The translations under genes and the position numbers were made by a program. DNA of 64,000 bases from assembly GCA_000091205.1 (NCBI GenBank), contig AP006500.2; one strand, given 5' to 3'. Below, one piece after another: positions 1,480-38,600 of the stretch; the first letter of the stretch is position 1; each line of letters begins with the position of its first letter. The notes under the pieces were generated by a model, which was given only the letters and a program-made list of their open reading frames with translations, had not been told where the DNA came from and ran no database searches. This stretch comes from Cyanidioschyzon merolae (taxonomy: Eukaryota).

Positions 1480-2968
1480 CGATCTGGCACTGAACGCCGC
1501 AGTTGCGCTGCGAATCGATGACGCTGCCAGCACCGGTACCGACATCCATCGAGGAGCCGTCCTGGAGCGCACGCTTACGACGGGAATGCACTGATCGCAC
1601 TATTGGATAAGCGCTCGCTTCGAGCATCCGAGAGCATCTAACGGTACGATGTGCGCTGGTGTACTGTGCAGCAAGCCACGCTGGAGCCCAGTAGCGGGCA
1701 CAAGGCAGCCAGCGGCTTGTCCGGACTACAGGGGCAGCGCGAGCGCCTGCGCAAGGCGATTCGTCGCTGTGTGCCGCCGGGCAATGCAGCCTATCGCCTG
1801 TGAAAGCAGCGAGTCGCAGGGCTGCCGCTTGTATGCAATATTTGCGCTGCGTTCGCTTGTAATGACCATGATAGCCTACTGAGGAGTAAGTGTCAGGTGG
1901 ATTACCTGGTAACAGGTGCTGGGATCCATTGGGCGACCATTAGGCTCAAATTTGACGTTTATGTGTCTCCAATGCGAACCTGATTCACAAACAACTGGAA
2001 AAGATGACTGCTCGTAGATATCCTTGCATCAGAGTGCTACTCTTGATTTACAATGTATGTAACATATGGGAAAGATGCTCCGCGGCAATCGTGGCTGCGG
2101 CGATCGATCGTGCAGTACCGCAGGTACGGGCGATACGTTCGCTCCGAGTGGCGGCTGCACAAAACTGCCCGGAGCATGTGCTTGCTCCAGTGCCCAACCT
2201 GGTGCTTTATTTGCGACCCTTTGGGCGCATTTTTAATGTACGCCAGATGCCAGCTACGCAGGATGGACGCGACGCCGTCCATTCTTCGACTTCGGACTCG
2301 TACCAGTGCACGCTCTCTACCATGACGTTTGTGTCGTGGCAACGCTGGATGCGCTGCGCAATCGCCATAGCGAGCTGCTCTTCGGAAGCCGACCAGCGTG
2401 CATCGTCCATGAGCTCGGGTACGGTTTCATCGATCCATTCAGACGTAACCTCTTCGAACACGTAAACGGAACGCATAGGGTATCGTGTGTCGGTTGCACT
2501 GTTCGAGTCCTCCAGGCGAAACGCTGTATACTGCATGATCTCGTGGTGTCTGTAGAGACGCTTCGTGCTGCGAACAACACCAACGCCTTATGGAGTGAGT
2601 CAGTACCCGTTGAGCAGCAACGCAAACCAGTCGAGCGATCATCTCGAAGAAAGCGTCAGTCAAACGTTCTGAACACACACTGACGACTCGTGTCAAAGAC
2701 ACTGCACTTTAGGAATCAGGCACGACCCGCGTGCCCTGTCAATCCAACAGTGCGCCGTTGATTCGGATGACTAGTCCAGCGGGTCAAGGGCGCTGCGATC
2801 GGAATCAACGCTTGACCGACAGTCGCTGCACGATGTAGTGCTTTTGCAGTTTCGCTCTATGAGTGACACAGGTGCGCTATGCAGTCCAGCGTCTTGAGTG
2901 CTTTCTGGAAATAGCGTGATACGGTTCAAGGAGCGAACAGACACGCTTGCGGCTAAGCTTGATCGTTC

Positions 2969-5032
2969 ATGGCGGAAGAGCCGGCGACTCCAGCAGACAC
3001 CGAGCTGCGGGACTCGCAAGGCGCTGACACTAGCCGGGAAGGGTCCTGGAGCCCCCACGAGTACCTCATTGAGCAGCCGCTGCACGTAAAGCAGCACCAA
3101 GGCGACGAGGCATCAGTTGCGGCCGACAGCGCACTGCCAACTGCCGAGACGGCTATGTGCACTGCACCAGCGCTGATGGAATACGAGGGTGATCGTCAGA
3201 GCAAAAGGGCTCGCGCCTCGGAGCTGGACTGGTCACCAGCGCTACCTCAAGGCAAAGATGAAGCATCAGCAACTGCTCACAAGACAAATAGTGAACATCT
3301 CGGGTCAGAGAGCCCCGACGATGTTGAGAAATCGAGTACGCCAGGTCATACGGACACAGAACTGGACAGGAATAGCACGTTAGTGTCGAACGCGGATCAC
3401 GCACGAGAACCCCTGGAGCGACGCCCTGGTGGTGACTATGACGAGCGCGACGCTTGTGCGACTACAGCTATGACAACGGGCGCTGCACCCCAAGACCCCG
3501 GGGACGAATGCAACGGCGACAGCGACGCTGCATCCACTGTCGACACAGAGCTCCTATTCGAGACACCGCTCGCCATCCTGAAAAAGTTCCTGGATGGCCA
3601 CTGGGTAGATGCCGGTCGCGGTCCAGTGCGCATTCTACGCCTACGCAGGTGCAGCGAGTCATCGGGCAACACAGAGACGTTTCTGCGCATGGACAGCGGC
3701 CTGCGCCCAGTGCTTTACCTCAGACTGGAGCACGAAACGGCACGTACTGCGCGATGGGAAAAAGTTCGCGAACGAAGTATCCGGTTTCTGTGTCCAGTCA
3801 GCGGGCAGGGCCCAGTGATGTGTGTGTTGCAGTTGCGCAATGCAGCGACTGCAGACAAGCTGCTGGCCCTGATCGAGCAGGTGGCGTTTGCTGCGGCCAA
3901 CAAGGCGCCAGTGGCATCGTATACTGAGCGTTCAACTGGCGTTCAGTACTCGAGTAGCTTTACTGAGCTGTGGACTAGATTCCAGGCAGACACAGTACCT
4001 GTTTTGGAGCAGCATCGAGAAAAAGCGCTCGACGATGACGAGACGGCTACTGCTCCTCGGGTTGTGCGCTTGGAGCAGCTCATCGATGCCTCACGCAAGA
4101 CGCTCGAGCTGCAGGACGCAGCGCAAGAGCGTCTCCTTCAGCTCCTAGAGGAAGCACGCGAGACTTGCACCCGGACAGAGCGCGAGCTCCAGACTGTGCA
4201 CCAGCGTCTGTGCCGGCGCATCGCAGCCGTGGAGCCGCAGCTCTCCAAGCTGAGGTCTAGTCTGGGACCCGTCGACTCGCCCGCACCGCTGACATCGGAT
4301 CCTGCGAAAGCGCTTTCCAACAATGACCTGATGATCACGTCGGTAGAGAGGCGTGCAGTGGAGGCATCCGCGTATGCAGATCCTGCCGACTTTCTTGGTT
4401 TCTGCGCGCGCTTATGCTCGTTTCGACCAAGCTGCTTCAAGCAGATGCGCTTAGAAGAGAAAGGGGCACAGGGCACGGGATATCCGCTTGTTATTGAGCT
4501 CGCACTTGGCGGATGGACGTATCTCTTGTCTGGGGCGTTGCACTGTGGGCGCTGCGGGGCCACATCAGCTGTCAGTGAACTCGTGAACGAGTCGGAATCC
4601 AGTGCACAGGGATGCAGACACCAGCCTGGGTGTCGCTGGCTCAGCGAGCGCTCTCCGACGACTTTTGCGTCGTTTCGTGCGGACTCGTCCACAAGTCGGA
4701 CGGAAGCATGCTGGGCACTGCACCTCGCTGACGCAGTCCGCTACTTGCGCGACGCACTGGAACGCTCCGCGTCTCCAAATGCCTCTGTTACTGAGCGTGT
4801 TGCATTTCGCAAGCTAGCCAGTCATGGTTGGGTATGCCAAACGCGGCAGGAGCGACTGCTTTTTTCCTGTATGTTCTGCGGGACACCGCGTTTCATGGCT
4901 CAGAGCGAGATCGAGCGTAGCCTCGACTCGACCGCAGCCGCAGGTCACCATCGCAGGTACTGTGCGTTCGCGGATACCACTGTTGCTGTCGATATCGAGC
5001 AGCAGCTACGAAATGGAACATCTGCAGCCTGA
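2969..5032 (+). CDS. hypothetical protein (687 aa): acidic/Ser-rich N-terminus, central coiled coil, C-terminal Cys-pair segment
   Basis: Long uninterrupted ORF in GC-rich coding-like composition. The C-terminal region has paired CxxC motifs (HCGRCG ... SCMFCG) that suggest a zinc-binding module. No confident family assignment. Confidence 0.4.
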   Translation: MAEEPATPADTELRDSQGADTSREGSWSPHEYLIEQPLHVKQHQGDEASVAADSALPTAETAMCTAPALMEYEGDRQSKRARASELDWSPALPQGKDEASATAHKTNSEHLGSESPDDVEKSSTPGHTDTELDRNSTLVSNADHAREPLERRPGGDYDERDACATTAMTTGAAPQDPGDECNGDSDAASTVDTELLFETPLAILKKFLDGHWVDAGRGPVRILRLRRCSESSGNTETFLRMDSGLRPVLYLRLEHETARTARWEKVRERSIRFLCPVSGQGPVMCVLQLRNAATADKLLALIEQVAFAAANKAPVASYTERSTGVQYSSSFTELWTRFQADTVPVLEQHREKALDDDETATAPRVVRLEQLIDASRKTLELQDAAQERLLQLLEEARETCTRTERELQTVHQRLCRRIAAVEPQLSKLRSSLGPVDSPAPLTSDPAKALSNNDLMITSVERRAVEASAYADPADFLGFCARLCSFRPSCFKQMRLEEKGAQGTGYPLVIELALGGWTYLLSGALHCGRCGATSAVSELVNESESSAQGCRHQPGCRWLSERSPTTFASFRADSSTSRTEACWALHLADAVRYLRDALERSASPNASVTERVAFRKLASHGWVCQTRQERLLFSCMFCGTPRFMAQSEIERSLDSTAAAGHHRRYCAFADTTVAVDIEQQLRNGTSAA

Positions 5033-6257
5033 CGCGTATCGTATGGATTGCGTAGAGCTCATTCGAACATGCATGGATACTTCGCAGGCAGTGCTCAGTG
5101 CTCTCTTGGATGGAGAGCAGGTCCCAAACGAGCGCACGTACCTGCCAGCGACGTCTAGACTGGAGCACCCGACAAGCAGCCGCACCAGATCACTTTTTGA
5201 CATCAAGGCAGCTGGCTGCGTACCATTCGCTGGCCTGTAAACAAGCATGGATGTAGCGTTGCAGAAACATCGACGATACGCAGCACCTCTCTGAAGTTTT
5301 ATGGATACCGACGCAAGCTGCTTCCTGGCGATGGCGAATGCAGGTGCCTCATGGACAAGCGTTTGATGCAGCGACAGACGCCACGGCAAGCGCGTCTACG
5401 CGGTATGCTAGGCCTCTGCTTGCATCGTTGAATGCGGGGAATGACGCTGAAACTGCGAGAGACTGGCACTTTCCATGGCCCAGTGTTCGCCTGTCGAGCG
5501 CGTGTCTTACAAGGCCCGGAGCAACCCCAGTTGAATTCGTGAGCAGAGTCAGTGCGGGGCAAGACTAGTAGACTCGATCGAGTGGGTACGTGACGGGAAG
5601 CTGGACGGCATATTGCGCAGGTGCGATAGCGTAGAAGTGGAGTCACACCATGGTGGTGCTCTGATAACCTGGTGTACCAAGATGGACAAGGGCACTGGGT
5701 TTGCGCTCTGGCTGAACAGTTGCACCTGATGTCGACACTGCGTTATGGGTACGCTGCAGTCGACTCTGGATTCAATACGTTATTCACCAAGTTTCGTTAA
5801 CATGTTGACCAGAGGAAGCAACATAGCGTCGCCTATCCGGATCAATCGACGATTGGTACCTCATTGCGCTTCAAGCGGCATACAAGCACGCAGGCGCTTT
5901 CTTAAACGTCGCCGCCGTCACCAGCGCAACCTGTTCCACGTCACGATACTTTGACAGACTCTGAGCACCCTTCCAGTCCAAGCGCTTCCCCGTAGACAGT
6001 GTAGTAGCAGTAGCGGCACTGGTATCGTCGCTGCCTGTCCTAAGCACTGGATACCGCTGCTCCTGCTTCTAGAATACCCAGGCAATGCTGCCTTCGCCGC
6101 TGACAACCCTCACCAATCGATAAGCAACTCGACGCAGCGGGCGCCTTGCAAGCCGTTCTGCGTACGGCTCCCGTCAAGGTTCCGTAGACGTTCGTGATAG
6201 GAGCTACAACGCTGACGTTACTTGTCTGCTGCACCAATGCCTGTCTGACGGTTACCA

Positions 6258-22792: not shown

Positions 22793-25294
22793 CGAGACCG
22801 GAACGATTGCGTTTGCTCAACACAGACTCGGCATCAGCTCGTTAAAAGTGCGACCATATTCATGTGTGTCACATGTTTCCGAACGACCAGATTTGCGATG
22901 CCTAGTCGCCTGCAGGTGTCCCGATGCCCCCAGTGAACGACACACGACTGATACTGAGGCGACAAGAAGCATGTGTTGCTGCGTCTGACATTCGCGTAGC
23001 GGTGGCTGCGGCTCAAGGCTTGTCCAGAAAGCGCTCGAGCGTCAAAGCGTCTGCAATTTTGGTGCAGGTTGATCGCGTGTAAACTCTGCACAGGCACGGA
23101 GTTGGTCAACGATAACGTGTTTCCGGACACAGTTCTCGGCGCTTTTTCGGTGCACGGTAACGGTGCGTTCTGCTTGTATGCGAGCTGCAACGCCCCGAGA
23201 AGCGTAGGGCGTAGCACTCAGTGTTTCTAGGATTGAAAATGGTACGGTTCTGGAAACACGTTGTACCTGCCGGTGGGCTTGTAAACGGAGTGCGATGGCC
23301 TGATTGGTAGCCCTGCACCAGAGCATACGCTGTGTGTCGGTTGTTGGCACGGGCCGAAGCCGAACCCAGCACCTGCACTTTTATCGTCGTTACCGTCGCT
23401 CATGCATCACTGGAGATCAGATGGCTATGATGCGTGTAAGCACAGCAATGCCGCTTTTCGACAAGTCGTTCTCTGCGCTCACCAGTCCTGGACTGCTGTG
23501 TAGCATCTCTGCTCATACGTAGGCTGGAGCGTAAAATCCGCGCGCTAGTCCATAGGCGTGCTCGTGACGGTAGTAACGAAAATGAACCTATGGCATACCA
23601 GGTACATAGAAAGAAAAGGCGGGTTTCGGTTCCAAAGCCAAGGAGAAGGCGAAGAATCCCGAAGGCGACGATTAGCAGACGGATCTTCTCGAAAAGAAAC
23701 CCCCGAGAGGCATGAAGGAAAAACTGTCGGGGCGGATGGATCAGTCTAAGACCGCTGCCATGGCATTCTTCATGGGAACATATCAAAGGATAGACCCTTT
23801 TAAAAAGTGAGGCACAGGGCGTTATCACGGATCATGTTGCTCCAAATTTGAACGAGACACGTCTGGCTTTTCTCGCCTTGAAGAACCTCGTTAAACAACT
23901 GCCTGTAGGAGTTGCGGACACAGGGTTCCCAGCTGTCGTCATTCATCGGGAAGCCCTGGGTCAAAACTCGATGGGACTAGTGCTTTACAGGACAGGAGCT
24001 GCAACACGGCCTGATCGTGGGTCCCAGGTTTTGCACACACGCTTCGCAGCATACCTCGACGCATCGCTATGCCATATCGGTCATCGGGACACCTAGAGCG
24101 CATGTGCCAAAGGGCATCGACATAAGCTCCCGGAGCGTATGGGTGTCGATGTCCAGCGTCTCATGAAGCGCACCCTGTGGGCGTCGTCGAAGTCTCTCCC
24201 TAATGGACCAGAAAACCGGGACTCAAGGAACCGATTCTACGCTTCGTGGAGTTTACAAGCGTCCAAGTGGCTCATGCGGACGATCTGTGACTAGGCTGCA
24301 TGAGACTGCACTAGGCCCGCGAACGATTTCATTTACACGAAAGCAATGAGCGTGTACACACCGAGCTATTGAATGAGGTGGCAAATGGAATGACCGCCAA
24401 GTCGCCTTATTTTGTGGCCGCCCATCGCGCTCGACGTATGGCAGCGAGCATGGGCTACACGCCCGCTTTTTGGCGATTGCGTACAATGAGTCCAGGAAAC
24501 GATTCTGCGCGATTTCCGAGGACACCTTCAGGACGGCATAGAGGCATCACGAGCACGGGTGCTTGCTGAAACTGCCAACGGAGAAGCGCGTAGAACAGAG
24601 ACGGATGCACGGGATAGTGTGCGGTACGCTGAGCGAATGCCAAATGGCGAGGCAACCGGAGATGAGCGGCGTCGCCTGGGTCGGATTCCACCGGTAACCC
24701 TGCGGGCAGGCAGTCTCTGCATCGAGACTTGAGCGTCACCGTCAACATTCGACAATGTCTCGCGTATCCGGAGCGTCCAGCGGATTTGTGTAGAGCGACC
24801 TTTCAAAGGAGTCGTTTCGTATTCAGCACGGGTATTTCGCTGAACCGCTGAAGACTCTGGATGAAAAAATACATGCAGTCAGGGTAGAACGCGTAGTCCA
24901 TGCTCGACTGGATCAACGCATTGGTATGGTGTGGTTCAGGGATCGGGCAAGGTCGGAACACCAGACGTGCAATCAACGGAAATGCTTTTCCTGTTCATTG
25001 ATAAACGATTTCAATGTTGCATTTTCCGATCATATACCGGACACCTGTCAACCGACACCCAGGCTCTGGGATACAGCGATTTCGCCATCGCGACGGGGAA
25101 GCGTGCTTCGGCTCGCTTCTCAAGCGCCGTACGCTGGACCCAGACTTGGATTCGAGTCTGAGAATCCGTCCCCGAAGTGAACAAGCGCCCTGGTTCCATT
25201 TCAAGCTAGCGTATGGGTAAAAATTCGCGTTTTACATCGATGCGGCCCGTCACACCCATTCACATACGAGTCGGCGTGAACGCGGCGATCCGAG

Positions 25295-27844
25295 TCAAAC
25301 GGATGCTTGGTTATCTGTCTCGTCCCAGAGCGGTACACGCAACACCGGCTCTATCAAAACAACCCAGGGCTGTAGCCCCGACTGCTCTTTGATGATATCG
25401 CTGGCAGGCCGCTCCGCTCGCAGATCATCACCCCAGGATGCAACCAGCAGCACATCGATCCACACAAAAGGCATGGTGAGCACATATCGAAGCGACTGGG
25501 AGAACGCCTCCACTCGCTCTGGTTCAGCCGTTGACCAGCTCATGTTCGTCCCAGTGCAGAGCGTTGTCAGATCCTCGTCAAGTACCCAAGCCGAAATCAC
25601 CGTCGGCGCAGAAGCGATTATTTTCCGATTTTCGAAACGCAGGTCGTCATTTAGAAACGGCTGATTTTCCACCGCTTCTTTCGATCCACTCGGGCACTGG
25701 AATGGCAGATCTGTCAAAAGCAGCTGCAGCATGTGCCGCGAGTCAGCGTCAACGATCCAGTGCACGTCGCAGACGCAGGCGTACACGCGGTAGAGCCGAT
25801 GCATTGGAGTGTCGGCGCGCGCGCACGCATTACCCGCTGCACGCATCGAGCGCAGTGCACGCATGTCATCCAACATATGCGCAAGCGACTGAGGGCGTAG
25901 CGCTTGCCAGGGTATGCTCATCGTTGAACTTGTCTGTAGCAGCGGTGGACCACTACAATGCAGGCAGCTGGGGTGCTGTACAGGACCCCGTTTGACAATT
26001 CCTGTCTCTGCGGACTCGATATTAGTCGTTGTATGGGAGGTGGTGGTGTAGGCAACGCGTTCGCGATTCAGTTCGGTGCACGGGGCGCTGAGTATGGGAT
26101 AGGCAGCAGCGCTCATTTGTTCCGGTGTATTTCGGGTGCCAAGCGCACGCTGGTGAGCAACGGGCGCTGCTTCGTATGCGCTTTGCGAATCGGTCCGACA
26201 CGTGGGATCAGTCAATGCTGCTCCCAAGTGCTGCATGCGACTTTGCACCTCGGGCATCCATTGCGGGAACTTGTAAATCGATGAACCCTCATTCATGGTC
26301 AGGCGCAAAGGCAGACCCGGGCGTCGATCGAGGCGTACATCGCGAAGCCGGAACCAGTTACCGCGAAGGTGCGGCTCCAGTCGATGTGTGAGCCGCGTCC
26401 AGCACTCTGCGGCAATGGAGACCGTCACCAAATCGGAGATGCTTCCGTCGGTGACTTTGAGCAGGAATTCGTACGGGGTTTTCTCCAAGTCCCGAATGAG
26501 CACCACCAGATCGTATCGTAGCCGTTGCATGGCGCTGCCGTTTGCTGAGTCGACCACAAGCGAACTTTGCAGAATGTCTCGCAGGGTGGCGGAGAACGCC
26601 TTCGAGCCGAGAAAGCCGCTTTGCGACAGGAGTGCACGCGCCCAACGTAGCAACTCCATGGCGTAACATTTTTCACTATTGGTGATCACGATCGATTTCG
26701 TGTTTGACGGGTAAGCATATATGAGCGGATCGGGTAAATGATTCATTTCTTCGAGATGAGTGGCGGTCGCGGCTCGCAGACCGGACAAGTCTCCGGAAGC
26801 GGAAGCCGACGAGCGTCCCAAACCAGCTCCCTCATCATGCTGAGCAAGTGCAGGCCAGAGGCACATAGAAGAGAGCGAATTTGTCTTCAGCTCCAACGTC
26901 TCCGTCTTCGAACCACTCGGACTCTGTTGGGGAAACCACCGCAGCTCGGCGCGATGTACCCGGACGACGTCTCCTACCCCGATGTACGGAACGCAATCGC
27001 TAAGACGGCTACTGAACGAGGTAAGCATGAATTGGGGAGGTGCGAAGCTCACCAGCCGCCCATCAGAGTCTGTTACGACGATGCTTGGATCGATGATCTG
27101 CAGCTCAGTGAGCAGTTCTCCGGTACGTACCAGGCGAGGCGCCCGGACGTCGACGATCACCCCGTAAACGTCATACGTGCGACCGGACATCTGGCCGGGG
27201 TGTCGCAACTGCTCAAGCGTTAAGTAGTGATGTTTTGAGTCCAGGGGCACTACAGGCCTCGGAACTGGTTCGCAACTTTCGTGCTGTGCGACGGGGCGTC
27301 CACTGGTGTCCGTCCCTGCACCATGCTCTGTGACGACCAGAGTTTGCCCTATAGACTCCGGAGACAGCTTCATGATACGTGCGTTTGCAAGTTGGGATAG
27401 ATCGTTGCACTTGCCGGCGTCTTTGAATATGGTGAGCGCGGGTTTGCAGGCTGTTGCGTCTGCGGCACCAGCACAGCAGGCCTCTCGCTGGTCAGGACCC
27501 AGTACCACCGCGTACTCGTGTAGTTCCAGACACGAGTCCAACAGTCCATGGTCCCTGGCCTCACAAATGTCGCCCAGCGGTACGACCTGTGCGTTCTGAA
27601 CCTCCACAACGTCCCAGTGTGCTAGGGCGGTGCCCGCGGCCGTCCAGTCGCCGGTGCAAACAAGCACAACCACGGTCTGCTGTGGAGCAGGAACACTCGG
27701 CCAGGGCTCAAGTAAAGCAAGGATCGCTCTACCTGAACGATTTTCAACTAATGTTCGAAGGACTCGCCCTCGTAGACGAAATGGATGCTCAGCGTTGCAG
27801 GTGTAGGGCTTGAGGCTCCGAAACTGCACGAGACGCAGTTCCAT
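25295..27844 (-). CDS. hypothetical protein (~850 aa). Possible OB-fold-like segments; function unknown.
   Basis: Long uninterrupted minus-strand frame 25295-27979. The track start at 27979 overlaps the 3' end of the Fanzor-like frame, so the downstream ATG at ~27844 (MELRLVQF) is preferred. Segments such as TYDVYGVIVDVRAP..TGELLTELQIIDPS resemble ssDNA-binding OB folds, but only weakly. Confidence 0.4.
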   Translation of the reverse strand: MELRLVQFRSLKPYTCNAEHPFRLRGRVLRTLVENRSGRAILALLEPWPSVPAPQQTVVVLVCTGDWTAAGTALAHWDVVEVQNAQVVPLGDICEARDHGLLDSCLELHEYAVVLGPDQREACCAGAADATACKPALTIFKDAGKCNDLSQLANARIMKLSPESIGQTLVVTEHGAGTDTSGRPVAQHESCEPVPRPVVPLDSKHHYLTLEQLRHPGQMSGRTYDVYGVIVDVRAPRLVRTGELLTELQIIDPSIVVTDSDGRLVSFAPPQFMLTSFSSRLSDCVPYIGVGDVVRVHRAELRWFPQQSPSGSKTETLELKTNSLSSMCLWPALAQHDEGAGLGRSSASASGDLSGLRAATATHLEEMNHLPDPLIYAYPSNTKSIVITNSEKCYAMELLRWARALLSQSGFLGSKAFSATLRDILQSSLVVDSANGSAMQRLRYDLVVLIRDLEKTPYEFLLKVTDGSISDLVTVSIAAECWTRLTHRLEPHLRGNWFRLRDVRLDRRPGLPLRLTMNEGSSIYKFPQWMPEVQSRMQHLGAALTDPTCRTDSQSAYEAAPVAHQRALGTRNTPEQMSAAAYPILSAPCTELNRERVAYTTTSHTTTNIESAETGIVKRGPVQHPSCLHCSGPPLLQTSSTMSIPWQALRPQSLAHMLDDMRALRSMRAAGNACARADTPMHRLYRVYACVCDVHWIVDADSRHMLQLLLTDLPFQCPSGSKEAVENQPFLNDDLRFENRKIIASAPTVISAWVLDEDLTTLCTGTNMSWSTAEPERVEAFSQSLRYVLTMPFVWIDVLLVASWGDDLRAERPASDIIKEQSGLQPWVVLIEPVLRVPLWDETDNQASV

Positions 27845-27920
27845 AGATTCCGTCGCACCAACAACGCCGTTCGAAAGTCGAACGACGCCAACGGTGTACA
27901 GTAGTGGCGGGAAAACCGTC

Positions 27921-30423
27921 TTAGAGAAGATGTCTCCAACTGACGTGCAGACACCTCCCCGCCTTTTTGGACCGGCCACCCACTACTGCTTCCAACTTTT
28001 TCTCATCTAGTTCGACTTTGATAGGTTGTCCAATAAAGTTCTCTCTTGTCAGCTCTGGAGGTCTCGTCTCCAGGACCGCACATCTCCGTACATTGATAGC
28101 GGCATTAAAGTCTCGGTTCACAAACTCCATACGTTTCTTCCCGTTGCGAGTTGTACTCACTATTGCGAGTAGCCCTCGAACTTTCGCCCTCCTTTCCATT
28201 TGCTCCTCCGTCAGCGGTCCGTACTTTGCTATTTCCTCAGGGCTCCTCTGGCACTTTTCTATCTCCACGCTCTGAAGTGTACAACCCAGTTCGTGGTATA
28301 TATACGATGTTCGGAACTCATCTACAGGTATCGTAACAAAACGCCTTGCGCACTGTTTGTGCACCCTCGTCGTTGGAGCTGGAGTAGTGCCTTTCTTGGG
28401 CGCCCAGCGCCCTGCCCCATACGCTACTACGAGCCTTTGACTTTCATCCTCCTTCAAGGCGCTCAACTGATTGAAAAAGTTGGCAAACGCCCGCTGCTTC
28501 CCACCGTATAGATTCATTCGCAAACGAGCCCACCGGGGCTTCGTATACTCCTCCCACAGCGCATCCCAATGCGCCATGCGAACTTCCATGAATTTCCGAA
28601 AAGCTTCAAATTTCGCGCTTCGGCTAGTCACCTTGCTCAAAGCTTCCAGGTGATCCTTCATCCCTGAATTCCAAGTCTCGATTTTCTTCCTTGCATTCAT
28701 GATTCCCGATTCTCGATAGTATCTCGCTCTCGAGAACGTCAAGAGACGCATGTCTTTCTGACGTAAGTTGCCGTCAGTACAATCTTCCGCCCGCTTCGGT
28801 GCTGCGATGGTGATGATATTTGAGTTTCCGGTGTCCGCGCCAACGACAAAGTCGTTATCTTGCACTTTCTGCTTCTCAGAACCGGGCTTCTTGTTTTCTT
28901 CATGGTTCGTCGCGTCAACGACAAAGTCGTTATCCTGCACCTCCTGCACCAGAGGATCCGCTTCCTTCCCATCTTCATCCTTCGTCACGTCAACGACAAG
29001 GTCGTTATCCTCCACCTCCTGCATCGCAGGTTCTGCCTCCTTCTCATCTTCATCGTTCGTCACGTCAACGACAAAGTCGTTCTCTTGCACCTCCTGTGTC
29101 GCAGGATCCGCCTCCTTCTCATATTCATCCTTCGCCACGTCAACGACAAACTCGTTATCCTCCACCTCCTGCATCACAGGATCCTCCTCTTTGTTTTCTC
29201 CATCCTTCGCGACGAGCGCAGCCGAGGGCGGAACTGGCCGACCTTCCTTCAACCGCCGATAGTGTACACACAAGGGTACTCCATCGGTTTCGATCAACCC
29301 AGTAAATACCTTTTTTTGCTGACTTTTAGACGTTTGAAATCGAAGATACTCTTCCAGTACGTCTCCCGGTGTTCGCCGGAGAACTCCTCCCTGCTAACAT
29401 CGAACTCCGGACAGATCTCCCTCATGATGCCGTAAAGGACGCCGGAGTCGATAGTTACAAAATGTGACTTGACTTTCCACATTGGAACCACGTTGAAGCG
29501 CTTCCCCATTAGGAAATTCTTCCGTCTCTCCCACTGTTCATTTGTCTCTTCACTCAGCTTCACCTCCGCTTTGCGTGCGAGCTCTCGGTCCAAAAACACG
29601 AAATAGCGCAGGATGAGGCGGTAGTATCTTTCCTTATCTTTTTTCAACGGTGATATCTTGTCTGTTGGATTCACCAACCCAGTGCCGCACGGTGCTCTTG
29701 TATAGCCGCACGGATCACAGAAGCTTCATTCGTGCTCCTGCGTGATGTCTTCATATCGACAAATTCGATCTCATCTTCATACTTTCGATCGTTCGTGATG
29801 CCGTTGATCATCGCCCATATTCCTTTGCGAGAGATGCCCGGGTAGAGTGCAAACACGGCGCGTTTCATGAAACGTTCGAGGTTCTCTGTCAAATGCTTCT
29901 TCAGGTTCGTAATGTACTTCATTACCCCGTATGTGTAAATATTTCCGTCACCCTTGTATCGGGTACGCTCGAAGCGGTATTCGGCGTAGTTTTCGTGGAG
30001 AGCGTGCACTAGCACATTTTCCTTCCGCGCTTCCCCTGTACCAAGCATCAGGTGACGAATAAAGGTCTTGTGGAAAAACTCGTCTGGAATCTCGACCGTT
30101 TCCATGTGCGTCACGTCGCGATACATCTCCCTCGCCAAATGCATCAGCCCTGAAGACGCCTTGACAATACTCTTGGAGTGCGAGTCGACACGTTTTTCGA
30201 TAGCGTCTCGCAACTTTTCCCTGTAGGGATCCTTGATATGTCCAAGAAGGAAGGCTTTCACCACCATCTCGTCGTACAGTCGTCTTTCTTGCCGCCTTCG
30301 ACGTAGGGCGTCCACCTTTCGATTCTCCTTCACTTCCTTTTCTTCTGGACTCGGCACTGTATTTGTTTTTTTTCTGGCAGCCGGCGACACTGGGCCTCCA
30401 GGATCGTGGACTTGCTTTTTCAT
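27921..30423 (-). pseudogene. TnpB/Fanzor-like RNA-guided RuvC endonuclease homolog (OrfB_IS605 family). The frame of about 835 codons is split into three ORF-track segments (30423-29671, 29677-29294, 29297-27921) by two +1 frame changes.
   Basis: Middle segment: RuvC-I-like ..[16 protein letters not shown].. (Asp codon ~29436-29438). 3' segment: TnpB-type ..RRFVTIPVDEFRTSYIYHELGC.. (the 'VDP.YTSQ.C' block) and RuvC-III ..EFVNRDFNAAINVRR.. (Asp codon ~28110-28112). The CxxC zinc ribbon is mostly missing, and the canonical RuvC-II Glu position reads ..RLVVAYGAGRW.. (substituted). The middle and 3' segments begin with TTG in the ORF track, and their frames stay open upstream and overlap. One junction coincides with the A7/T7 run at 29311-29317. 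Confidence 0.7.
28847..29192 (-). repeat. five tandem 75-bp repeats encoding an acidic 25-aa unit (consensus ~QEVxDNDFVVDVTxDEDxKEADPxx) inside the Fanzor-like frame
   Basis: The period is visible directly in the DNA (gtcaacgacaaagtcgttatcctgcacctcctgc... recurring every 75 nt) and in the translation (PVMQEVEDNEFVVDVAKDEYEKEADPATQEVQENDFVVDVTNDEDEKEAEPAMQEVEDNDLVVDVTKDEDGKEADPLVQEVQDNDFVVDATN...). It sits between the RuvC-I and RuvC-II regions. Confidence 0.85.
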
Positions 30424-30780
30424 AGCTTTCCTTTTTTAGTTTTTTTGAGAAAGAACGCTCTTTGAACCCTTCTGTTATATACTGCGAAAAATTAATCGAA
30501 TATTTTTACTTGAGGTTTGAAGCACAATCGAACTGAAAGACTGTACGTTGCTATGACCTGAACGAAAATACAACGTTTACAATAGATCTACATGCTAGAG
30601 ATCAGGATCACGTTCCCCTTCAAAAACGGCATGTGCGTCGTGTCTCATGCCTGCCTGATCTCCGAGGTGCGCTCACTGAGCGCGATGCAAACTAGTCACA
30701 AACTATTTATCAAAGAACAACTATCTTTAAGCCCAACACACCACGCCCGCATAAGAGGTCTAGTTTTTCCGGAGAAGCTC
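30424..30780. promoter_or_regulatory. AT-rich (~35-40% GC) spacer directly upstream of the Fanzor-like frame start; putative promoter or element end
   Basis: Sharp drop in GC (tttttttagtttttttgagaaagaacgc...ttatatactgcgaaaaattaatcgaatatttttacttg) compared with ~60% in the flanks. It lies between divergently oriented mobile-element reading frames. Confidence 0.3.
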
Positions 30781-31289
30781 TGAAAGTGGGCGAACGCGGG
30801 GTGCTTGGGCGACGGCGAAGGAAGCCCACGACAGGGACGTTGACCGCAACGAACAGAGGGGCGCAGACAGTGGCAGCAGAAAATATTGACGAGGGTTCTG
30901 AGCAGTCATCCGCTGCTCTCGAAACAACGCTGCAGGCTCCGGCGCAAATCCTGGATTCATTCTTGAACTCGGGCTCAGGATTACCTCCTACATTGGTTTC
31001 TACCTCAACTCTGGAAACAGTCTCGGCGGATACTTTGGAAGACGGCTGGCAGTATGTTCGCGGTCGAAGCTGGAATAAGCGACTTATCCGCCTATGTGTT
31101 TGGGGAGCGGATACGAAGCCGCTGAAAGGGTAGTTCGTAGAGTATCCGCTGTGGTTGCGGGTAGCTTCACGCGTCCGGCAAGATAAAGGTCGCATTCGAA
31201 TCGACCTTGACTAATGTACTTCTGATTTTACGCTAGCACTGCGGCAAGCACTCAGTGAACGACTGGAATGCAGGAGGCAATGGTGGCGT

Positions 31290-34200
31290 GTGCGTTCTCA
31301 CACCCTGGGGAGGGTGCATCTAAATCGACGACGTATCTCTGGAGTACCGCAGCGTTACTCCTATTCCCTTATGCGCTACGACTCGATAGGTTTCGCATCA
31401 TGGAATATTTGTGGGATAGCCTCGATACTAGACGACGAGATATCGAATTACCAGTACAGTAATGAAGAACTGATACAAGTCGTTGACTGTACAATGGGTA
31501 AAGAGACCCAACCAGATACGGAGAAGGAGACACAGAAACCTCATGATCCACCTAGATGCAAAATATCCAGAGAAAGCAGCTCAGGAAAGAGCCCGAAGAA
31601 GAAGAAGACCAGCAAGAAAAAATAGATGAATAGAAAGAAGAACTCCCAAACGAGCCCATCACAAGTCATCCCCCGAAAGGGCACCCCAGCGGGATCTCAA
31701 GAAAGCTGTCACCAAACCCAGGCACCTGCTCACAGCGCTGAAGATCCGAAAAGCCGTGAATACAAATCTTCAGACCAATTGGCACGCGAGTTTGTAGATG
31801 GGAATCAGAAGATTGCCAGAGAACTGGGACTGCTTGCACCTGAACACAACAGTAGCAAGCCGCAGTACCTCAAACGACGTACCAAAACTCGGATTGATGA
31901 ATGCCACCGACTCCATAAGATCGTCAACCGCACCGCCATACGCGCCAACGCCGGAGACAAGGAAGCGAAAGCAGCGCTACCGGCGCTACAGGCGCAACAT
32001 GAAGAAGCTATCAAAAGAAAGAAGAAACTTTCCAGAGAAGACAAACGAGAGGATCGAAACCGCAAAATGGCCTCCCTGACGGAATTTATGCTCGAGAGCA
32101 CCAACGAAGATGAGACCTAGCGCTCCATTCGATCGAGACTGGACCCACCAAAAAAGTGCTTGGGGCTCACACCAATCGTTTATGAGGAAGCGCTGAGGAC
32201 GGAGCGTGCCTCAGGGAATGAGGCCTGGATAAACCACGGGATAGAGCTGCATGAAGACGCAACTGGGCACTGCCGAAACCGAAACTATTGGCAACAGTAT
32301 GCATCAGAACTACTACGCCTCGACCCGGTACCGGAATGGAACGACCCAATCTTCTGGACTGAATCTGTTCGGACCCTGCTATGCTCAAGCAACCGCAAAA
32401 CACCTGGCTTTAACGGTATCCCTGCGGAGTGGATGAGACTGGCGATTCCAAAAGACGGGACAACAGGGACACCATCGATACCAGATGAACCTGACACAAT
32501 CTTAGGCAAACGCCTTGTGGAGCTCATCCAACGCATGTTCGAAGAGGCGTACATCCCGGATGTATGGAGGACTGCCGAGGTCGTACCGATCCTCAAAAAG
32601 GACTCCCACACAGACATGAACAACTACTGGACTATGCGCCTCATCCCGTCAATCATGAAGCTACTTTGCGCCATCCTCACGAACCGGATCCAGACGCGCT
32701 TCGAGGAGCGCAAGTTCTTCGCCTCAGAACAGGCTGGATTCCGGAGCCGCAAGGAGTGCATGAGCCATGTCCTGACCCTCATTGGAGTGGCGCAACGTCG
32801 CTTCATTAGCGACCAACAACCAACTTACGTATGCTTCGTCGACTTTCAAAAGGCTTGTGACACGTTCCCGCATGAGGCTCCATTTCTGAAGATGGGACGA
32901 TCCGAAGTCTCCGGAAAGTGCTTGGCGTTCTTCCGTGCGCTCTATGCAGACTCATGGATGCGCATCCGACTGGGCGACAGCTCAAGAACCCCTTGTATAC
33001 GAATCCACCGTGGACTGCGACAGGGCGACCGCGCATCCCCGCTCCTTTTCAACATCTTCATCAACGATCTGCTTAACAACTGCAGACAATACGGGCTTGA
33101 GGTGCCGTGGATAGACTGTGGAGATGCCCGATGAGGAGCGCCCATTTGGGAACCGCCTCGCAGGCCGTTTAGTTGCGGACGATGCCGTGCTGTTGGCAAA
33201 CGCCCCGGAAACGCTTGCTGCTAGCATGGAACAAGTCAGCGCCTGGGCCGATCGCTGGGGTATGAGCATAGGAGCATCGAAGTGCGGCGTCATGCTCATC
33301 CATGGAGACTCGCAGAGCATTCGCAATCGCTCGTGGCGGTTGCAGAATCAGGAAATTCCGATCGTGGAAACATATCGCTACCTGGAGGGTCTGTCGCACG
33401 CCGACGCTCGACGAAAAGGCACACGTTAACGAGATGATCGCCAAGATGCATAGACGTACAGCGATCGCACGCCCATTCCCATCCGACCCCTCTATCCGCT
33501 TAGCAATCCGTACGAGGGCACTAAGGATGTGTATCATCCAGCCTGCGACCTGGGGTACTGAATGGTGCGGCATGAAGCACGCAAATGCCTCGCGTCTGCA
33601 GACAGCCGCCAACAGGGCAATGCGACTCGTTGTTGTTGTTGGATGCTCAATGCAGAGCAGAGCAACCAACCCGTTGACACTCGGACTTGAACTCCAAATA
33701 CCCTCGATAGAAGCGATAGCAGCAGGTTGCCGGGTACGTATATGGGCCAAAGGGCCCGCCATGCGCACCTCTTTGAGTCGGAGTTTCATGCAGACCCCAA
33801 CGCACCGCAAGAAAACTTGGATGAAATCGACGCAGATTTGGCAGAAGCGCCTCTTGGGCGAAAACACGCTCCCCAATCGTTCCCCAGAAATATAGAATTC
33901 TCCCGTCGCCTGAAGCGAACGGTCCAAACGCCAATATGGGAAGGTAGACATGGTACCAGTCGCGCTAGTAACGCCGGCTTGACTCTATATCGGAACTACA
34001 ACCTAGCATACACATGCAAGTACTGGTGGGAGGCGCTGGAATTCCCGGGACTTGCTCGCGGTACCCTGTGGCTTGCCAAAATCCGTGTTAGTGGCATCTG
34101 GCTACCAGCACCGGCTCTAAGCCGTACGGGAACACTGGAACCGCACTGGGAGTCACACTGTCCCTGCTATCGAGAAGAGACCCCTCGAGACGCTGACATA

Positions 34201-34900
34201 TTTGGGCTTACAGTGCCCGCGCTCGAAGCAGGAGCGCAGCGAGCTCCTTGGAGGACACCAGCAGCTGGGCATCACCGTGATAGTCGAAGGCCGGACACTC
34301 ACTCTGAGTATAGCACCGGCAACTGATGGTCCGATAACCGAGCCTCAGCGCTCATCAGTGGCGAACAAACTCACATGCTACCTTCTAGGCATGAGGTCCA
34401 GCGTATCGGATGCGCACACGGGTTTAGTGCACTTTCTGCGCCTACCCACTGTGGTGGGTGTCAAGCACAAACCCGCATTGCCAACCTACAACACATTCAA
34501 TGCATGATCACGAAGGAGAGAGGCGGCTCCCAGGATTCAACCTAACAGCCAAGTTTCTACAGCGTGTATTGCGGCGAAGGCAAGCCTGCATTTGCAGACT
34601 ATCCGAGCACAAACTGACGACGAGACCCGATTCTACGTCGGGTGAACCACACCTCGAGCCGACGCCCTTTGTGGTATAGAAAAGCTGTTCTAGCTCTATG
34701 AGCTATCTGCTCCAGCGTTCAAGTGCAAAGGCGAATACGGAACGGCAGGTACTAGGCACACACGATAGGACGTATGAAACGACCAGAATATCCGAGACGA
34801 AGTATAGCTAATGTAACATGGGAGTAGGGGGTTGATGAATACCTCACCTCGCACTGAAAAAACAAACACACAATAAAAGTAGGAAAAGAAGAATGCGCAT
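31290..34900 (+). mobile_element. degenerate non-LTR (LINE-type) retrotransposon copy. One long frame holds a basic N-terminal region and a reverse transcriptase. Two in-frame TAG codons and frameshifts inactivate it. A-rich 3' tail region.
   Basis: Frame 0 is continuous from 31290 to 33134 except for TAG at 31623-31625 and TAG at 32118-32120. The RT motifs are listed under the next feature. Later parts shift to other frames (33118-33429, 33302-33895, 33727-34326). An A-rich stretch ctgaaaaaacaaacacacaataaaagtaggaaaagaag lies near 34850-34900. No APE endonuclease domain was recognised. Confidence 0.75.
32160..33429 (+). pseudogene. LINE reverse-transcriptase domain (frameshifted near 33118-33134)
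   Basis: RT motifs 0-7 are listed below with a VADD variant of YADD. The 32160 start is a TTG artefact of the ORF track. Confidence 0.8.
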
Positions 34901-35357
34901 GATCGGAGAACGCTGGCCTAAGTAAACGTTTTGTCCATGAAAACAATCGTAGCTTCAGCAACGGTGAAACCGGGGCTCGGCGTTCCGCGGGGCATGCTCC
35001 ACTGACTTGTCGAATATGCACGAAAATTGTCGAATTCATTGCTGATGACGCTGCTACTGTGTTGCAGTAGTACGCAGTGGACCTGTCTTCTGCGAGTCTC
35101 GAGAACATTTTGCACTCGAACGGAAACCTGTACGTTCGGACGCTTAGACCATTCGCGTCAGAGGATGCTTTTCAAAATGCATTCTTATCGGGAAAACTCG
35201 AACGTCTCCGCGCAATACCCAGCCATATTACCGGCACTAGCGTGGCCGATTGGCCCCCTTCGACGCCGCTGGCTACAGAGCACTAGTAACCGAGACGCTC
35301 TGGGCATCTCGCAAGCATCGCGTTGCCAATCGCATGGATAAGCTCTGGAATGCCAGC

Positions 35358-35507
35358 GGATACAATCGATCATTCGCTATTTGCTCCGTGTCAACGATGA
35401 GACACACCCAGCAATCGTATGCACCGAGTTTCGGATACAATCGATCATTCGCTATTTGCTCCGTGTCAACGATGAGACACACCCAGCAATCGTATGCACC
35501 GAGGTTC
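35358..35507. repeat. near-perfect tandem duplication, two copies of 75 bp
   Basis: Unit ggatacaatcgatcattcgctatttgctccgtgtcaacgatgagacacacccagcaatcgtatgcaccgag occurs at 35358 and again at 35433 with a single-base difference at the unit end. The small ORFs on both strands that translate as GYNRSFAICSVSTMRHTQQSYAP x2 are probably spurious. Confidence 0.9.
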
Positions 35508-35693
35508 CGGGAGCTTTTATCCAAGGCGAAATGACAAAACGCCCTCATATTGGCATCTTGCGTACCCAGAGCCAGGCCACAAGGAGGCGTCTCTCCTCGG
35601 GGGCGACGATGATGGCCTGCAGGGAGGCGTCGGCTGTACGCCCAGTCGCTTCAACTGCTGTGCTGCTGTTGTGGTCGTTGTGCAGGGCGCCGC

Positions 35694-38600
35694 ATGGGAC
35701 AACACTACTGTGGAGCTTTTCGTCCTCAGTTGTGGATACTTGATGACGACTTGTCTTCGGAGACACGAACATCTGAGAACTTTACCCCCAGCGAGCGAAC
35801 CTATGGCACAGAGCAGAGCACGTGGTCTGTGTCGACTCGAAGCGGTGCGTCTGATGGAACGCAGGCTTCCCCGATGGACACCTCGCAAGCTGCAGCAGAC
35901 GACGATGAGGACGCACTGGAGTTTGAACAACAAAACATAGAAGAGCGACTGGAGGGTTTTGAGGCCTTTGCTGACCAGTACTGGCGGATCGTGGTGTACA
36001 TCCTGCTCAACCTGTTGACGTGCGGTCTTGTCTACGCCGCGTTGCAGAGTTTCCCCAGCACCAAAGTGCGTCTGCTCTACAGACGTGCAACGAATCTGGC
36101 TGAAGCTACTATGTTGCTCGTGACGTTTCGAAGGAAAAGTCGCCAGAATAAGGGCCATTACTTTGTGATCCCGTCCGAGCCGCGTGCTCGTGTGCCGAGC
36201 AGCGTCCTCAGCGCGTACCTGGGTCGACTCTCTACGCGCACGATTTTGGGACAAAGTGCGCGTGGTCGAGAAACGTTGCGGCTTTTGAGCGAACCCGTTG
36301 AAACGGTGCTTGTGATCGAGGCTCGCCAGCGTCGGTATCTCCTCATCCAGTTATCAGGGTGGCGACACGCCGGTCAACGCGGCATGCACCAGCGTTTTAT
36401 CTGCTTGCGCATCCACAGTGCGTTTATTCCGGCATTTGAGGAGTACTATCGATTACCCACAGACGAGAGCTCTTTGATAACACCCAGCATGCATCCTATT
36501 CCTGAGCATGAAGTCGCACTACCGGTTGCCGGCTTCCACGAAGAGGACGAAGCAGCTTGGGATCGACCGAGCGATCCCCGTGGAAACCAAGAGTCTGCCG
36601 TGGCGGACGTCGAGGATCCCGCTGCCCCCGAGGCTGAAGTACAACCGGCGTCGCTGGTGCTTCACCGACCGCTGGGCATCGACCTGCTAGAGGCAGATGT
36701 CATCCGGGCGATCGTAGGCGACAACAGTATCGAGGTAGAGATGGCACCCTTACTCAGGCTGTTCCTGCAGTCTGTCACACATCCATTCTTCCTCTTCCAA
36801 TTCTTTTCGATTGCGTTGTGGATTCTCGAAGCGTACTACTACTATTCAGCGACAATTGCATTCGCCTCGTTTATGAGCGCCCTCCTGGAAGCCATGGAGA
36901 TGCGAAGCAATGCGGAGCGACTTGCTCGTATCGCCGCCAGCGAAGGAGATGTGCTAGTGATCCGTCGGTCGCCTACGAATCGCTCTTGTGACTGTTGCGA
37001 GCGCATTTCTTCCCGGGAGCTTGTTCCAGGAGATGTGATCATCGTCGAGAGTGGCATGGTTATGCCGTGCGATTGTACGCTGCTGCAAGGCTCAGCGGTC
37101 GTCACGGAAGCGAATCTCACGGGCGAAGCGGCGCCGCTTTTCAAGTCCTCCTGGCACAGTGCATACGAGGAGCCCAGCTCCAGGGTACCCCCGCGAATTC
37201 CCATCGAGTCTTACCAGCACAGTTCGGGACTTGCAGCGGTATCCGAGGTGACCACGCAGGAAGCTTCTGCACACCAGGGCGCCGAGTCTTCTGCCCATTT
37301 CATCAACATGGAAGAAAGCGAAGGCAACGAAGAGGATGAACAGTCATCTGGCGAAAGTGAGGGCTATTTTATGGGCGCCTATTCGGCATCGAATGAAGCG
37401 GAGGATCTGCTTCCTACACCGGCATTTCACCACATGTCGGTAGGTGGCCTCAGCGCCTGGCTGCAACCCGCATCGGCCGCAGAAGCGTCCGCCGTCGGGA
37501 GCGCGCTGGACGCTTCCGTGGAACACTCGTACACCACCGCCGCCGCCACCACTGCTGCTGCTACTGCTCCTGCTGCTGCTGGCGCTGATGCAGACGTAAA
37601 TGTGCGGCAGGTATCTCGAGACGGAGAACGCTATAGACGCGAGCGCGGTGCCCGGAGCGTACCAAGGATGATGACTGCAGGGCGCCAGCACCAGGCGCCG
37701 GCTGCGCATCATTTAGCCTGGGATCAGGTCAATCATGTGCTATACGCTGGAACGAGAGTCATCGAGGCTCGTCCCGAACGGAGCGTGCCGAGCACCCAGC
37801 AGAGCACGGCGGCAGCAACGGATGCTGGGTTTTCCTCAGCGGGAACTTGGCAGGGTACTGGGATCACTGGTGCCGACAACGGAGCCTCCGCTACGCCCGC
37901 AACAGATGATCAGATGCAGTCGCTGGACAGCGCCGTCCTTGCACTTGTCATTCGAACGCGACTCGATACCGCCAAGGGGACGCTCCTGCATCAGATTTTG
38001 CTCGCAGATGACCAGACCTCGAGCTACGAACGCGGAAATCCGGGGCCGCGTGACACTCGCGACACCAAACTCTCGGTGTGGGCGGCGCTTTGGAGGCGCT
38101 TGCGCTCCAGGTCACCGCCTGGCGACGCCCACTTGGGCGATGGCGAACTCGATGACCCCGAGAGCAGTGACAAGCGACTCTCGCAAATGTATCTGGACGC
38201 GTACAAGGCCATGGTTGTGCTGCTGTTCGGTGGCGTCCTCGCTACGGTCTATTCTTTCACCCTGTTGCGTCCGCTGCTCTCGTTTCGAGAAGCCCTACTC
38301 AGCGCACTCGATGTGTTGACGATTGTGGTACCACCGGCACTGCCAGCGGCGGTTACCTTTGGGATTGTGTTCGCACTGGAGAGGCTGCTTGCGGCCCAGA
38401 TATACTGCATTCGTCCGCCGGCGGTTCTTATTGCATCTGGGATCGAAGCGCTCTGCTTCGACAAGACGGGAACCTTGACGGACCTGGGCCTGGACATTCA
38501 CGAAATCCTCCCGGTAGCGTCGATGCCGCTCGCACTGGAAACATTGCCCGGGATTCAGGTCTCGAGCGACCCGCCTGGCGGCATAACCACGGCTGCAACA

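Follow-up and report, generated by a model that had tools for sequence, protein, structure and literature searches.

A long interspersed nuclear element (LINE) that appears to lack an endonuclease lies in a 64,000-nucleotide stretch of DNA (contig AP006500.2; hereafter the window) from the red alga Cyanidioschyzon merolae, head-to-head with a Fanzor-like gene. Positions 30688-34949 of the window very probably hold a decayed LINE copy that belongs to a subfamily from which the apurinic/apyrimidinic endonuclease (APE) has been deleted, within a family already known from C. merolae, and that is a separate entity from its Fanzor neighbour. The element is an ordinary dead member of that family, and its absent endonuclease is explained by a single internal deletion. 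The outcome is mostly a clarification: in a very small and well-studied algal genome, what looks like an endonuclease-less LINE has arisen by deletion from an ordinary APE-type LINE, and its origin has nothing to do with that of the adjoining Fanzor gene. The window represents chromosome 18 of strain 10D, in that five of its long open reading frames (ORFs) exactly match annotated proteins (CMR418C and its neighbours); the long unbroken frames of the window owe their existence to the near absence of introns in this alga.

The endonuclease deletion and the copies that reveal it

The initial annotation, made from the letters of the window, described a non-LTR (long terminal repeat) retroelement without recognisable APE. 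This is correct as far as the core of the domain is concerned, since no APE core could be detected in the six frames of the window (Pfam at E<=10, a hidden Markov model (HMM) from close relatives, and nucleotide comparison with the family's APE segment), but it is incorrect for the very start of the domain: APE motif I is preserved as FASWNICGIAS at 31392-31424 (ASWNICGIAS at 31395-31424), directly before the deletion junction. An APE-bearing copy of the same family was found by searching with the family's own N-terminal profile. This search yielded the protein P0161, in which a C-terminal APE half (IIMGDFNM..SDHWPI) is fused to the low-complexity region of the family, and from there the contigs L065-L068. 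Positions 517-1267 of L065 correspond to window 30688-31437 and positions 2042-5431 to window 31438-34821, each at 89.8% identity, and the intervening 774 bp of L065 encode in frame a complete Exo_endo_phos domain (PF03372, profile positions 1-225 of 225, E 1.9e-10). In L065 the segment that is deleted elsewhere is bracketed by imperfect direct repeats (AGCCTCGATACTAGATGAC and AGCCCGGATACTAACCGAC). In all of the 17 copies reaching across the junction, the window among them, the corresponding interval measures 485-559 nt (533 in the window), and they therefore share one deletion. Since the family possesses a full APE in L065 and the window keeps only motif I, the window copy is a deletion derivative of an APE-type LINE. 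The APE-bearing lineage has retrotransposed too, as can be seen from the 5'-truncated copies in L025/L046 and L027, which start inside the APE core; in our sample there are 17 APE-deleted copies and three APE-bearing loci.

More distant relatives carry an APE upstream of the reverse transcriptase (RT) as well (P0027, L063, L064). The Smittium protein P0027 shows the APE motifs GDFN..SDHLPV, the contig of P0017 shows GTWNIRS..LQET..GDWN..SDHWPV, and on the contig of P0026 an adjacent copy has a PF03372 match. A LINE of non-APE type, as envisaged in the initial annotation, is contradicted by these APE-bearing relatives, which were recognised by their 31-36% identity and not from a formal RT tree, by L065 itself, and by the presence of motif I at the 774-bp junction. 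Other routes to the APE were less productive. An HMM built from four distant matches was too weak to be useful, and sequence searches against the PDB could not place an APE. The stretch ASWNICGIAS..GKETQ of the window was considered as a candidate for APE motifs I and II, and aligned with the APE start of the relatives by hhalign at E 0.011 without significance in pairwise BLASTP; this candidate was rejected because L065 shows GKETQ to lie beyond the deletion, in the low-complexity region.

The copies were collected by scanning metagenome contigs with the RT protein of the family, which gave 60 loci, mostly from hot-spring samples, so that the further copies expected of a transposable element do exist. 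Most of them are 87-92% identical to the window copy over the LINE. Alignment of window 25000-38000 to the 60 loci delimited two separate repeats, the first of which is the LINE, with a 5' end (CAAACTAGTC) and a 3' end (..GTC(N)ATGAAAAAAA) that are found again in many loci whose flanks are unrelated; L006, L012, L018 and L032 hold full-length matches that likewise sit in unrelated flanks. The extent of 31290-34900 proposed in the initial annotation has to be revised accordingly, as it misses 600 bp of the 5' end. The dispersed copies have a common 3' end, variable 5' truncation (with starts equivalent to window 30821, 31439 and 33741) and no LTRs, and around 16 different 3' flanks testify to varied insertion sites. 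A search for target-site duplications, as suggested in the initial annotation, returned none of >=5 bp at the true ends 30688 and 34949 of the window copy or in L006, L012, L018 and L032, in a comparison made without empty alleles and with a 5' end rendered ambiguous by an A-rich leader. Telomere repeats (AATGGGGGG) are absent from all of the loci, and an association of the LINE with telomeres was rejected on this ground.

The A-rich leader is a feature of most full-length copies (L038, L035, L033, L051, L018, L032, L006, L012), where 15-25 nt of variable sequence, e.g. AATGAAAAGAAAAACACAACAAAA, precede the element; it is absent at window position 30688. The leader starts like the element's own 3' tail (AATGAAAAAAA), and it may belong to the transcript, reflect a preference for certain targets or be left over from tails. 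A further peculiarity concerns the orthologous locus in contig L026, which in comparison with window 33316-36500 is 99.5% identical in the flank, 96.7% identical over the 449 bp at the 3' end of the LINE and ~90% identical further in. This drop suggests that copies have undergone gene conversion, or that the assembly jumps from one copy to another.

Family membership, anatomy and decay

The genome of strain 10D has been reported to contain 26 non-LTR 'class I elements', three of them with an intact RT ORF, and these elements are described as few in copy number and mostly defective; the accessible part of that report does not mention domain anatomy, element ends or an endonuclease deletion (Nozaki et al. 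2007, PMC1955436). The RT fragments annotated in 10D as 'retroelement, alive' (P0002 and P0004, 348 aa) are 84-85% identical to the RT of the window. The window LINE belongs to the family already counted among the 26 elements, and in relation to the 'retroelement, alive' genes, with which it shares organism and family, it is one of the dead copies. In the literature we found neither a clade assignment for a C. merolae LINE nor an earlier mention of the APE deletion.

A family consensus was derived as the majority of ~60 fragments and repaired at two sites where framed and frameshifted variants coexist among the copies. In the repaired consensus a single frame stays open for 1107 codons between stops, ~1055 of which remain when counting starts at the first Met. 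The layout of the family is a short N-terminal ORF followed by a long ORF that comprises the APE, a linker, the RT, a CCHC zinc knuckle and a C-terminal tail, with a short A-rich tail at the 3' end of the element (Table 1). The 5' ~600 bp of the LINE are made up of the 5' untranslated region (UTR), the N-terminal ORF of ~100 codons, which lies upstream of the main ORF in the same frame, and two stops (TAG 31131 and TAA 31212). The TAA at 31212-31214 is present in the consensus and in every copy that could be read in frame there (including L018, L013, L002 and L065), and could reflect a genuine organisation in two ORFs, readthrough, or a defect that the master copy passed on. The N-terminal ORF has a homologue in the relatives P0072 and L064 (hhalign E 1.6e-5; hmmsearch E 1e-4), namely their N-terminal region, which is fused to the APE; in these relatives the counterparts of the N-terminal ORF and of the main ORF form one unbroken ORF. 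The main ORF of the consensus begins with MRYDSIGFASWNICGIAS and continues through a Lys/Ser-rich low-complexity stretch and the linker into the RT; no Pfam domain matches 31440..32594 at E<=10. The plus-strand RT of a non-LTR retroelement, recognised in the initial annotation, is borne out by its Pfam match, and its best matches in the PDB are the RTs of R2 and of L1 ORF2p (E ~1e-19).

Table 1. Features of the LINE copy and of the adjoining Fanzor element (window coordinates)
Feature	Position	Strand	Remarks
Whole LINE copy, APE-deleted subfamily, 4262 bp	30688..34949	+	Full-length matches in L006, L012, L018, L032; recurrent ends
Short N-terminal ORF/domain, ~100 codons	30906..31214	+	Ends at TAA 31212
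Start of main ORF (MRYDSIGFASWNICGIASILDD), remnant of APE motif I	31371..31436	+	~90% nucleotide identity to the start of the complete L065 APE
Deletion junction	31437..31438	+	APE core of 774 bp (258 codons) in L065-L068, absent from the window and 16 other copies
Lys/Ser/Thr-rich low-complexity stretch, then pre-RT linker	31440..32594	+	Holds TAG 31623 and TAG 32118
Reverse transcriptase domain	32595..33318	+	Pfam RVT_1 E 3.5e-20; broken by a 1-nt insertion near 33125
CCHC zinc knuckle	34159..34216	+	Split by a 1-nt insertion near 34186; CPCY..RDADIF of the initial annotation
C-terminal tail, ~95 codons, LLGG motif, then stop	34217..34507	+	Common to the relatives at 31-36% identity
3' UTR with short A-rich tail (CATGAAAACAATCG) at its end	34508..34949	+	
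Separate Fanzor1 element, CMe-1A-like, 2832 bp	27855..30686	-	ORF in three pieces; palindromes beside both termini

The segment downstream of the RT had given rise to a different classification, namely that of an R2/NeSL-type LINE with a restriction-like endonuclease (RLE) after the RT, of which the Cys/Asp-containing string CPCY..RDADIF would be a remnant. There are genuine points of resemblance: like R2, NeSL and CRE, the LINE family has one long ORF with a CCHC motif downstream of the RT, in R2 too a CCHC precedes the nuclease, and the R2 RTs in the PDB score as well as the L1 RTs (E ~4e-19). The string itself can be read in that frame of the window, but it is the frameshift product of a CCHC knuckle, for which the consensus reads HCPCCGDETPETLTYLGLQCPRWKQER (knuckle consensus HCPCCGDETPETLTYLGLQCPRW), with His at the position of the Tyr in P0020; intact copies have HCPCCG(D/N)ETPETLT(H/Y)LGLQ(C/W)PRWKQER, and the relatives at 31-36% identity share the motif CP(F/S)C..ET..H.L..C. 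In the ~95 residues that follow the knuckle neither inspection nor Pfam (E<=10) revealed an RLE, and the alignments with R2 structures end within the RT. The family differs from R2, NeSL, CRE, R4 and Hero in having no RLE domain and no single target site, its insertion sites being varied, and in having an N-terminal APE, as do its relatives; the copy in L065 carries an APE (PF03372). Given the APE-bearing L065, which refutes it, we consider the R2/NeSL assignment to be almost certainly wrong.

The coding path of the APE-deleted copy in the window contains four in-frame stops, namely the window's own TAG 31131, the family-wide TAA 31212, and TAG 31623 and TAG 32118, and four frameshifts near 33125, 33385, 33872 and 34186; frameshift polymorphism is seen among the copies. 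The two in-frame TAGs of the initial annotation (31623 and 32118) and its frameshifts are among these lesions, on the strength of which the copy is dead and cannot move. In each segment the three codon positions are equally diverse among the copies, so that this comparison gave no sign of selection on the ORF; equal diversity is the pattern that neutral decay after insertion produces.

Routes of spread for an endonuclease-less subfamily

The history that we propose starts with a master element from which an in-frame internal deletion, close to the short imperfect direct repeats, removed 774 bp and with them nearly all of the endonuclease core; APE motif I remained in place, and the subfamily of the window copy descends from that single APE-deleted master. 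Unrelated flanks and the 5' truncation of some copies show that reverse transcription initiated at the 3' end carried the deleted RNA to many new sites. Since the deletion is in frame and keeps the RT ORF open, the element probably supplied its own RT. The DNA nick, on the other hand, must have come from elsewhere and not from the element itself. Supply in trans by APE-bearing sister elements is the simplest source, because such elements exist and were active, and we give it about an even chance; priming on pre-existing DNA ends, i.e. without any endonuclease, is possible but more tentative. The window copy, which adjoins the 5' terminus of an older Fanzor element, later decayed.

The absence of an element-encoded nuclease raises the question of whether the subfamily spread as a whole by having its RT primed on 3'-OH ends at breaks, helped by the absence of classical non-homologous end joining (c-NHEJ). 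C. merolae is reported to be the only free-living protist without c-NHEJ (PMC6635534), and endonuclease-deficient human L1 retrotransposes in cells that are deficient in p53 and NHEJ (PMC12871754). The deletion is in frame and leaves the RT ORF open, no target-site duplications are seen in the window, L006, L012, L018 and L032, LINE ends recur in both orientations at <=2 nt from the Fanzor 5' terminus, as would be the case for break capture, and in L034/L052 a 4-nt ATCG overlap joins the LINE tail to the Fanzor terminus. However, APE-bearing copies of the same family could have given the nicks, and no copy adjoins telomere repeats. Endonuclease-independent L1 insertions are often 3'-truncated, in contrast to the intact 3' tails that most copies retain here, and this argues against break-priming. 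The number of junctions sampled is small and they come from metagenome contigs. On balance, spread without an endonuclease appears rather unlikely to us.

Known elements provide partial precedents. RIME from ingi, NARTc from L1Tc and HAL1 from L1 are internally deleted, non-autonomous LINE derivatives that have lost the RT. The window subfamily resembles them in that it is derived by deletion and is, among the loci sampled, more numerous than its full-length parent, but differs in losing the endonuclease alone, in frame, and in keeping the RT ORF; HAL1 is also mentioned by Bao & Jurka 2013 (PMC3627910). Endonuclease-independent L1 and the endonuclease-lacking Penelope-like elements at telomeres (Morrish 2002; Gladyshev & Arkhipova 2007; summarised in PMC12871754) are comparable in being RT-encoding retroelements without a nuclease in an NHEJ-deficient background. 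Unlike these, the window LINE is non-telomeric, APE-bearing helpers exist, and natural activity without a nuclease is here hypothetical. With the APE-type LINEs (L1/I/Jockey/Tad-like supergroup) the family has in common the succession APE, linker, RT, CCHC knuckle, C-terminal tail, as well as an A-rich 3' end and 5' truncation; the window copy departs from them in its lost APE core and in the lack of visible target-site duplications. The nearest sequences are unnamed LINEs of metagenomes and of the early-diverging fungi Smittium and Synchytrium, with 31-36% identity over >=90% of the RT and C-terminus, and the 'jockey' names on source records are automatic labels. Among the loci sampled, the subfamily that keeps its RT and has no nuclease is more numerous than its parent, and this in what is reported to be the sole free-living protist without c-NHEJ. 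As C. merolae is genetically tractable, it could serve as a natural setting for testing endonuclease-independent retrotransposition.

Several observations weigh against the proposed history of the window LINE. The APE-bearing copies L065-L068 are metagenome contigs, so that an APE-bearing helper in strain 10D itself is hypothetical. The PDB structures of L1 and R2 RTs score equally, and searches of PDB sequences do not separate an L1-like from an R2-like RT. LINE proteins usually act in cis, and a trans nick for an element that encodes its own RT is not the textbook route. The APE-deleted L012 (7560-8071) and the APE-bearing L065 (1-516) share a 5' flank that is 98.4% identical, with differing 3' flanks, which may point to ectopic recombination or to metagenome contigs that are chimeric across the repeat. 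Finally, four full-length copies without visible target-site duplications are not what a staggered APE cut would lead one to expect; some APE clades produce short target-site duplications or none.

The adjoining Fanzor element and its junctions with the LINE

The second repeat delimited by the alignment is apparently the Fanzor1 element CMe-1A. CMe-1A has been described as an element of ~3 kb with ~150 copies that are ~80% identical, without terminal inverted repeats (TIRs), the 5' 635 bp of which constitute TE-N2_CMe (Bao & Jurka 2013, PMC3627910). The neighbour is of comparable size (2832 bp), its copies are 76-88% identical and it has no TIRs; full copies are found in L034, L052, L018 and L065, and a solo 5' piece of 634 bp (equivalent to 30053-30686) in L025 matches the published 635 bp of TE-N2_CMe. 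Two RuvC-like motifs, DEFRTS and NRDFNAAINV, can be made out by eye in the Fanzor ORFs; searches of Pfam, NCBIfam and PDB sequences returned no match for the nuclease domain. Palindromes are situated near the 5' end (GCGCTCACTGAGCGC, 30669-30683) and near the 3' end (CGTTCGAAAGTCGAACG, ~27868-27888), and recall, by analogy, the subterminal hairpins of IS200/IS605 elements. Within the minus-strand Fanzor ORF, 28841-29209 holds 4.9 copies of a 75-bp (25-codon) tandem repeat that encodes an acidic, D/E-rich stretch, and BLAST offsets suggest that the repeat number varies between loci.

The head-to-head arrangement noted in the initial annotation is real, the minus-strand Fanzor ORFs adjoining the LINE; the AT-rich spacer of ~1.2 kb that was thought to separate them is not, since the Fanzor 5' terminus at 30686 touches the LINE 5' end at 30688, in a region with a GC content of 0.49-0.51 (~0.56 for the window). 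Such close apposition could suggest that LINE and Fanzor gene together make up a composite mobile element, the more so as they abut without a spacer, the same head-to-head junction occurs in L001 and L007, and further LINE/Fanzor junctions recur. Yet the two occur apart in many loci: full-length LINEs have no Fanzor neighbour in L006, L012 and L032, the LINEs of L030, L033, L035 and L038 have an unrelated flank on their 5' side at least, and in L034, L052 and L004 the Fanzor element ends at termini of its own. Where both are present they adopt at least five different mutual arrangements, and the Fanzor copies (76-88% identical) are older than the LINE copies (87-93%). Their separate occurrence, the variety of arrangements and the greater divergence of the Fanzor copies lead us to conclude that they are separate elements and that the LINE arrived later, and a composite element is highly improbable. 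In L007 the Fanzor part is 73% identical to that of the window and the LINE part 88-92%, a disparity that speaks against a composite and argues for independent junction events.

Even for two separate elements, the junctions are striking in their precision: no more than 2 nt separate the LINE end from the Fanzor 5' terminus, and this applies to several types of junction and to both orientations. In addition to the head-to-head junctions there are tail-to-head junctions in L034/L052, in L025/L046, and in L013 and L065, and in L061 a 5'-truncated LINE is placed at the Fanzor 5' terminus. Five of the ~16 distinct LINE 3' flanks are Fanzor sequence, a share that far exceeds the expectation for random insertion. 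Breaks at the terminus, shared ancestry through duplication, and 3' transduction are possible causes. That LINE ends are repeatedly fused to precisely this 5' terminus gives a hint of the site of DNA cleavage as the poorly understood Fanzor1 elements move. A more far-reaching proposal would be that the endonuclease-less subfamily multiplied alone by priming on DNA ends, preferentially at the CMe-1A/TE-N2 5' terminus, in its c-NHEJ-less host. We regard this as improbable; if true, nicks or breaks from Fanzor1 transposon processing would explain why LINE heads and tails are fused to the terminus in both orientations, and the system would represent a natural endonuclease-independent spread of a LINE that is coupled to DNA transposon activity.

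Two further accounts of the association were considered. The Fanzor element as a retroposon mobilised by the LINE was rejected, because a palindrome and not an A-tail is found at its 3' end, and an insertion of the Fanzor element into a pre-existing LINE is disfavoured by the lack of a LINE leader beyond 27855 and by the greater age of the Fanzor copies.

On the far side of the Fanzor element, beside its 3' end, the minus-strand ORF 25295-27979 has a weak match to the oligonucleotide/oligosaccharide-binding fold (OB-fold) of POT1/CDC13 (PF02765, E 1.3e-5, below the curated cut-off), and its longest frame overlaps the end of the element. Just downstream of the LINE, at 35357-35507, a 75-bp unit is present twice (98% identical), and the orthologous contig L026 has about four copies of it.

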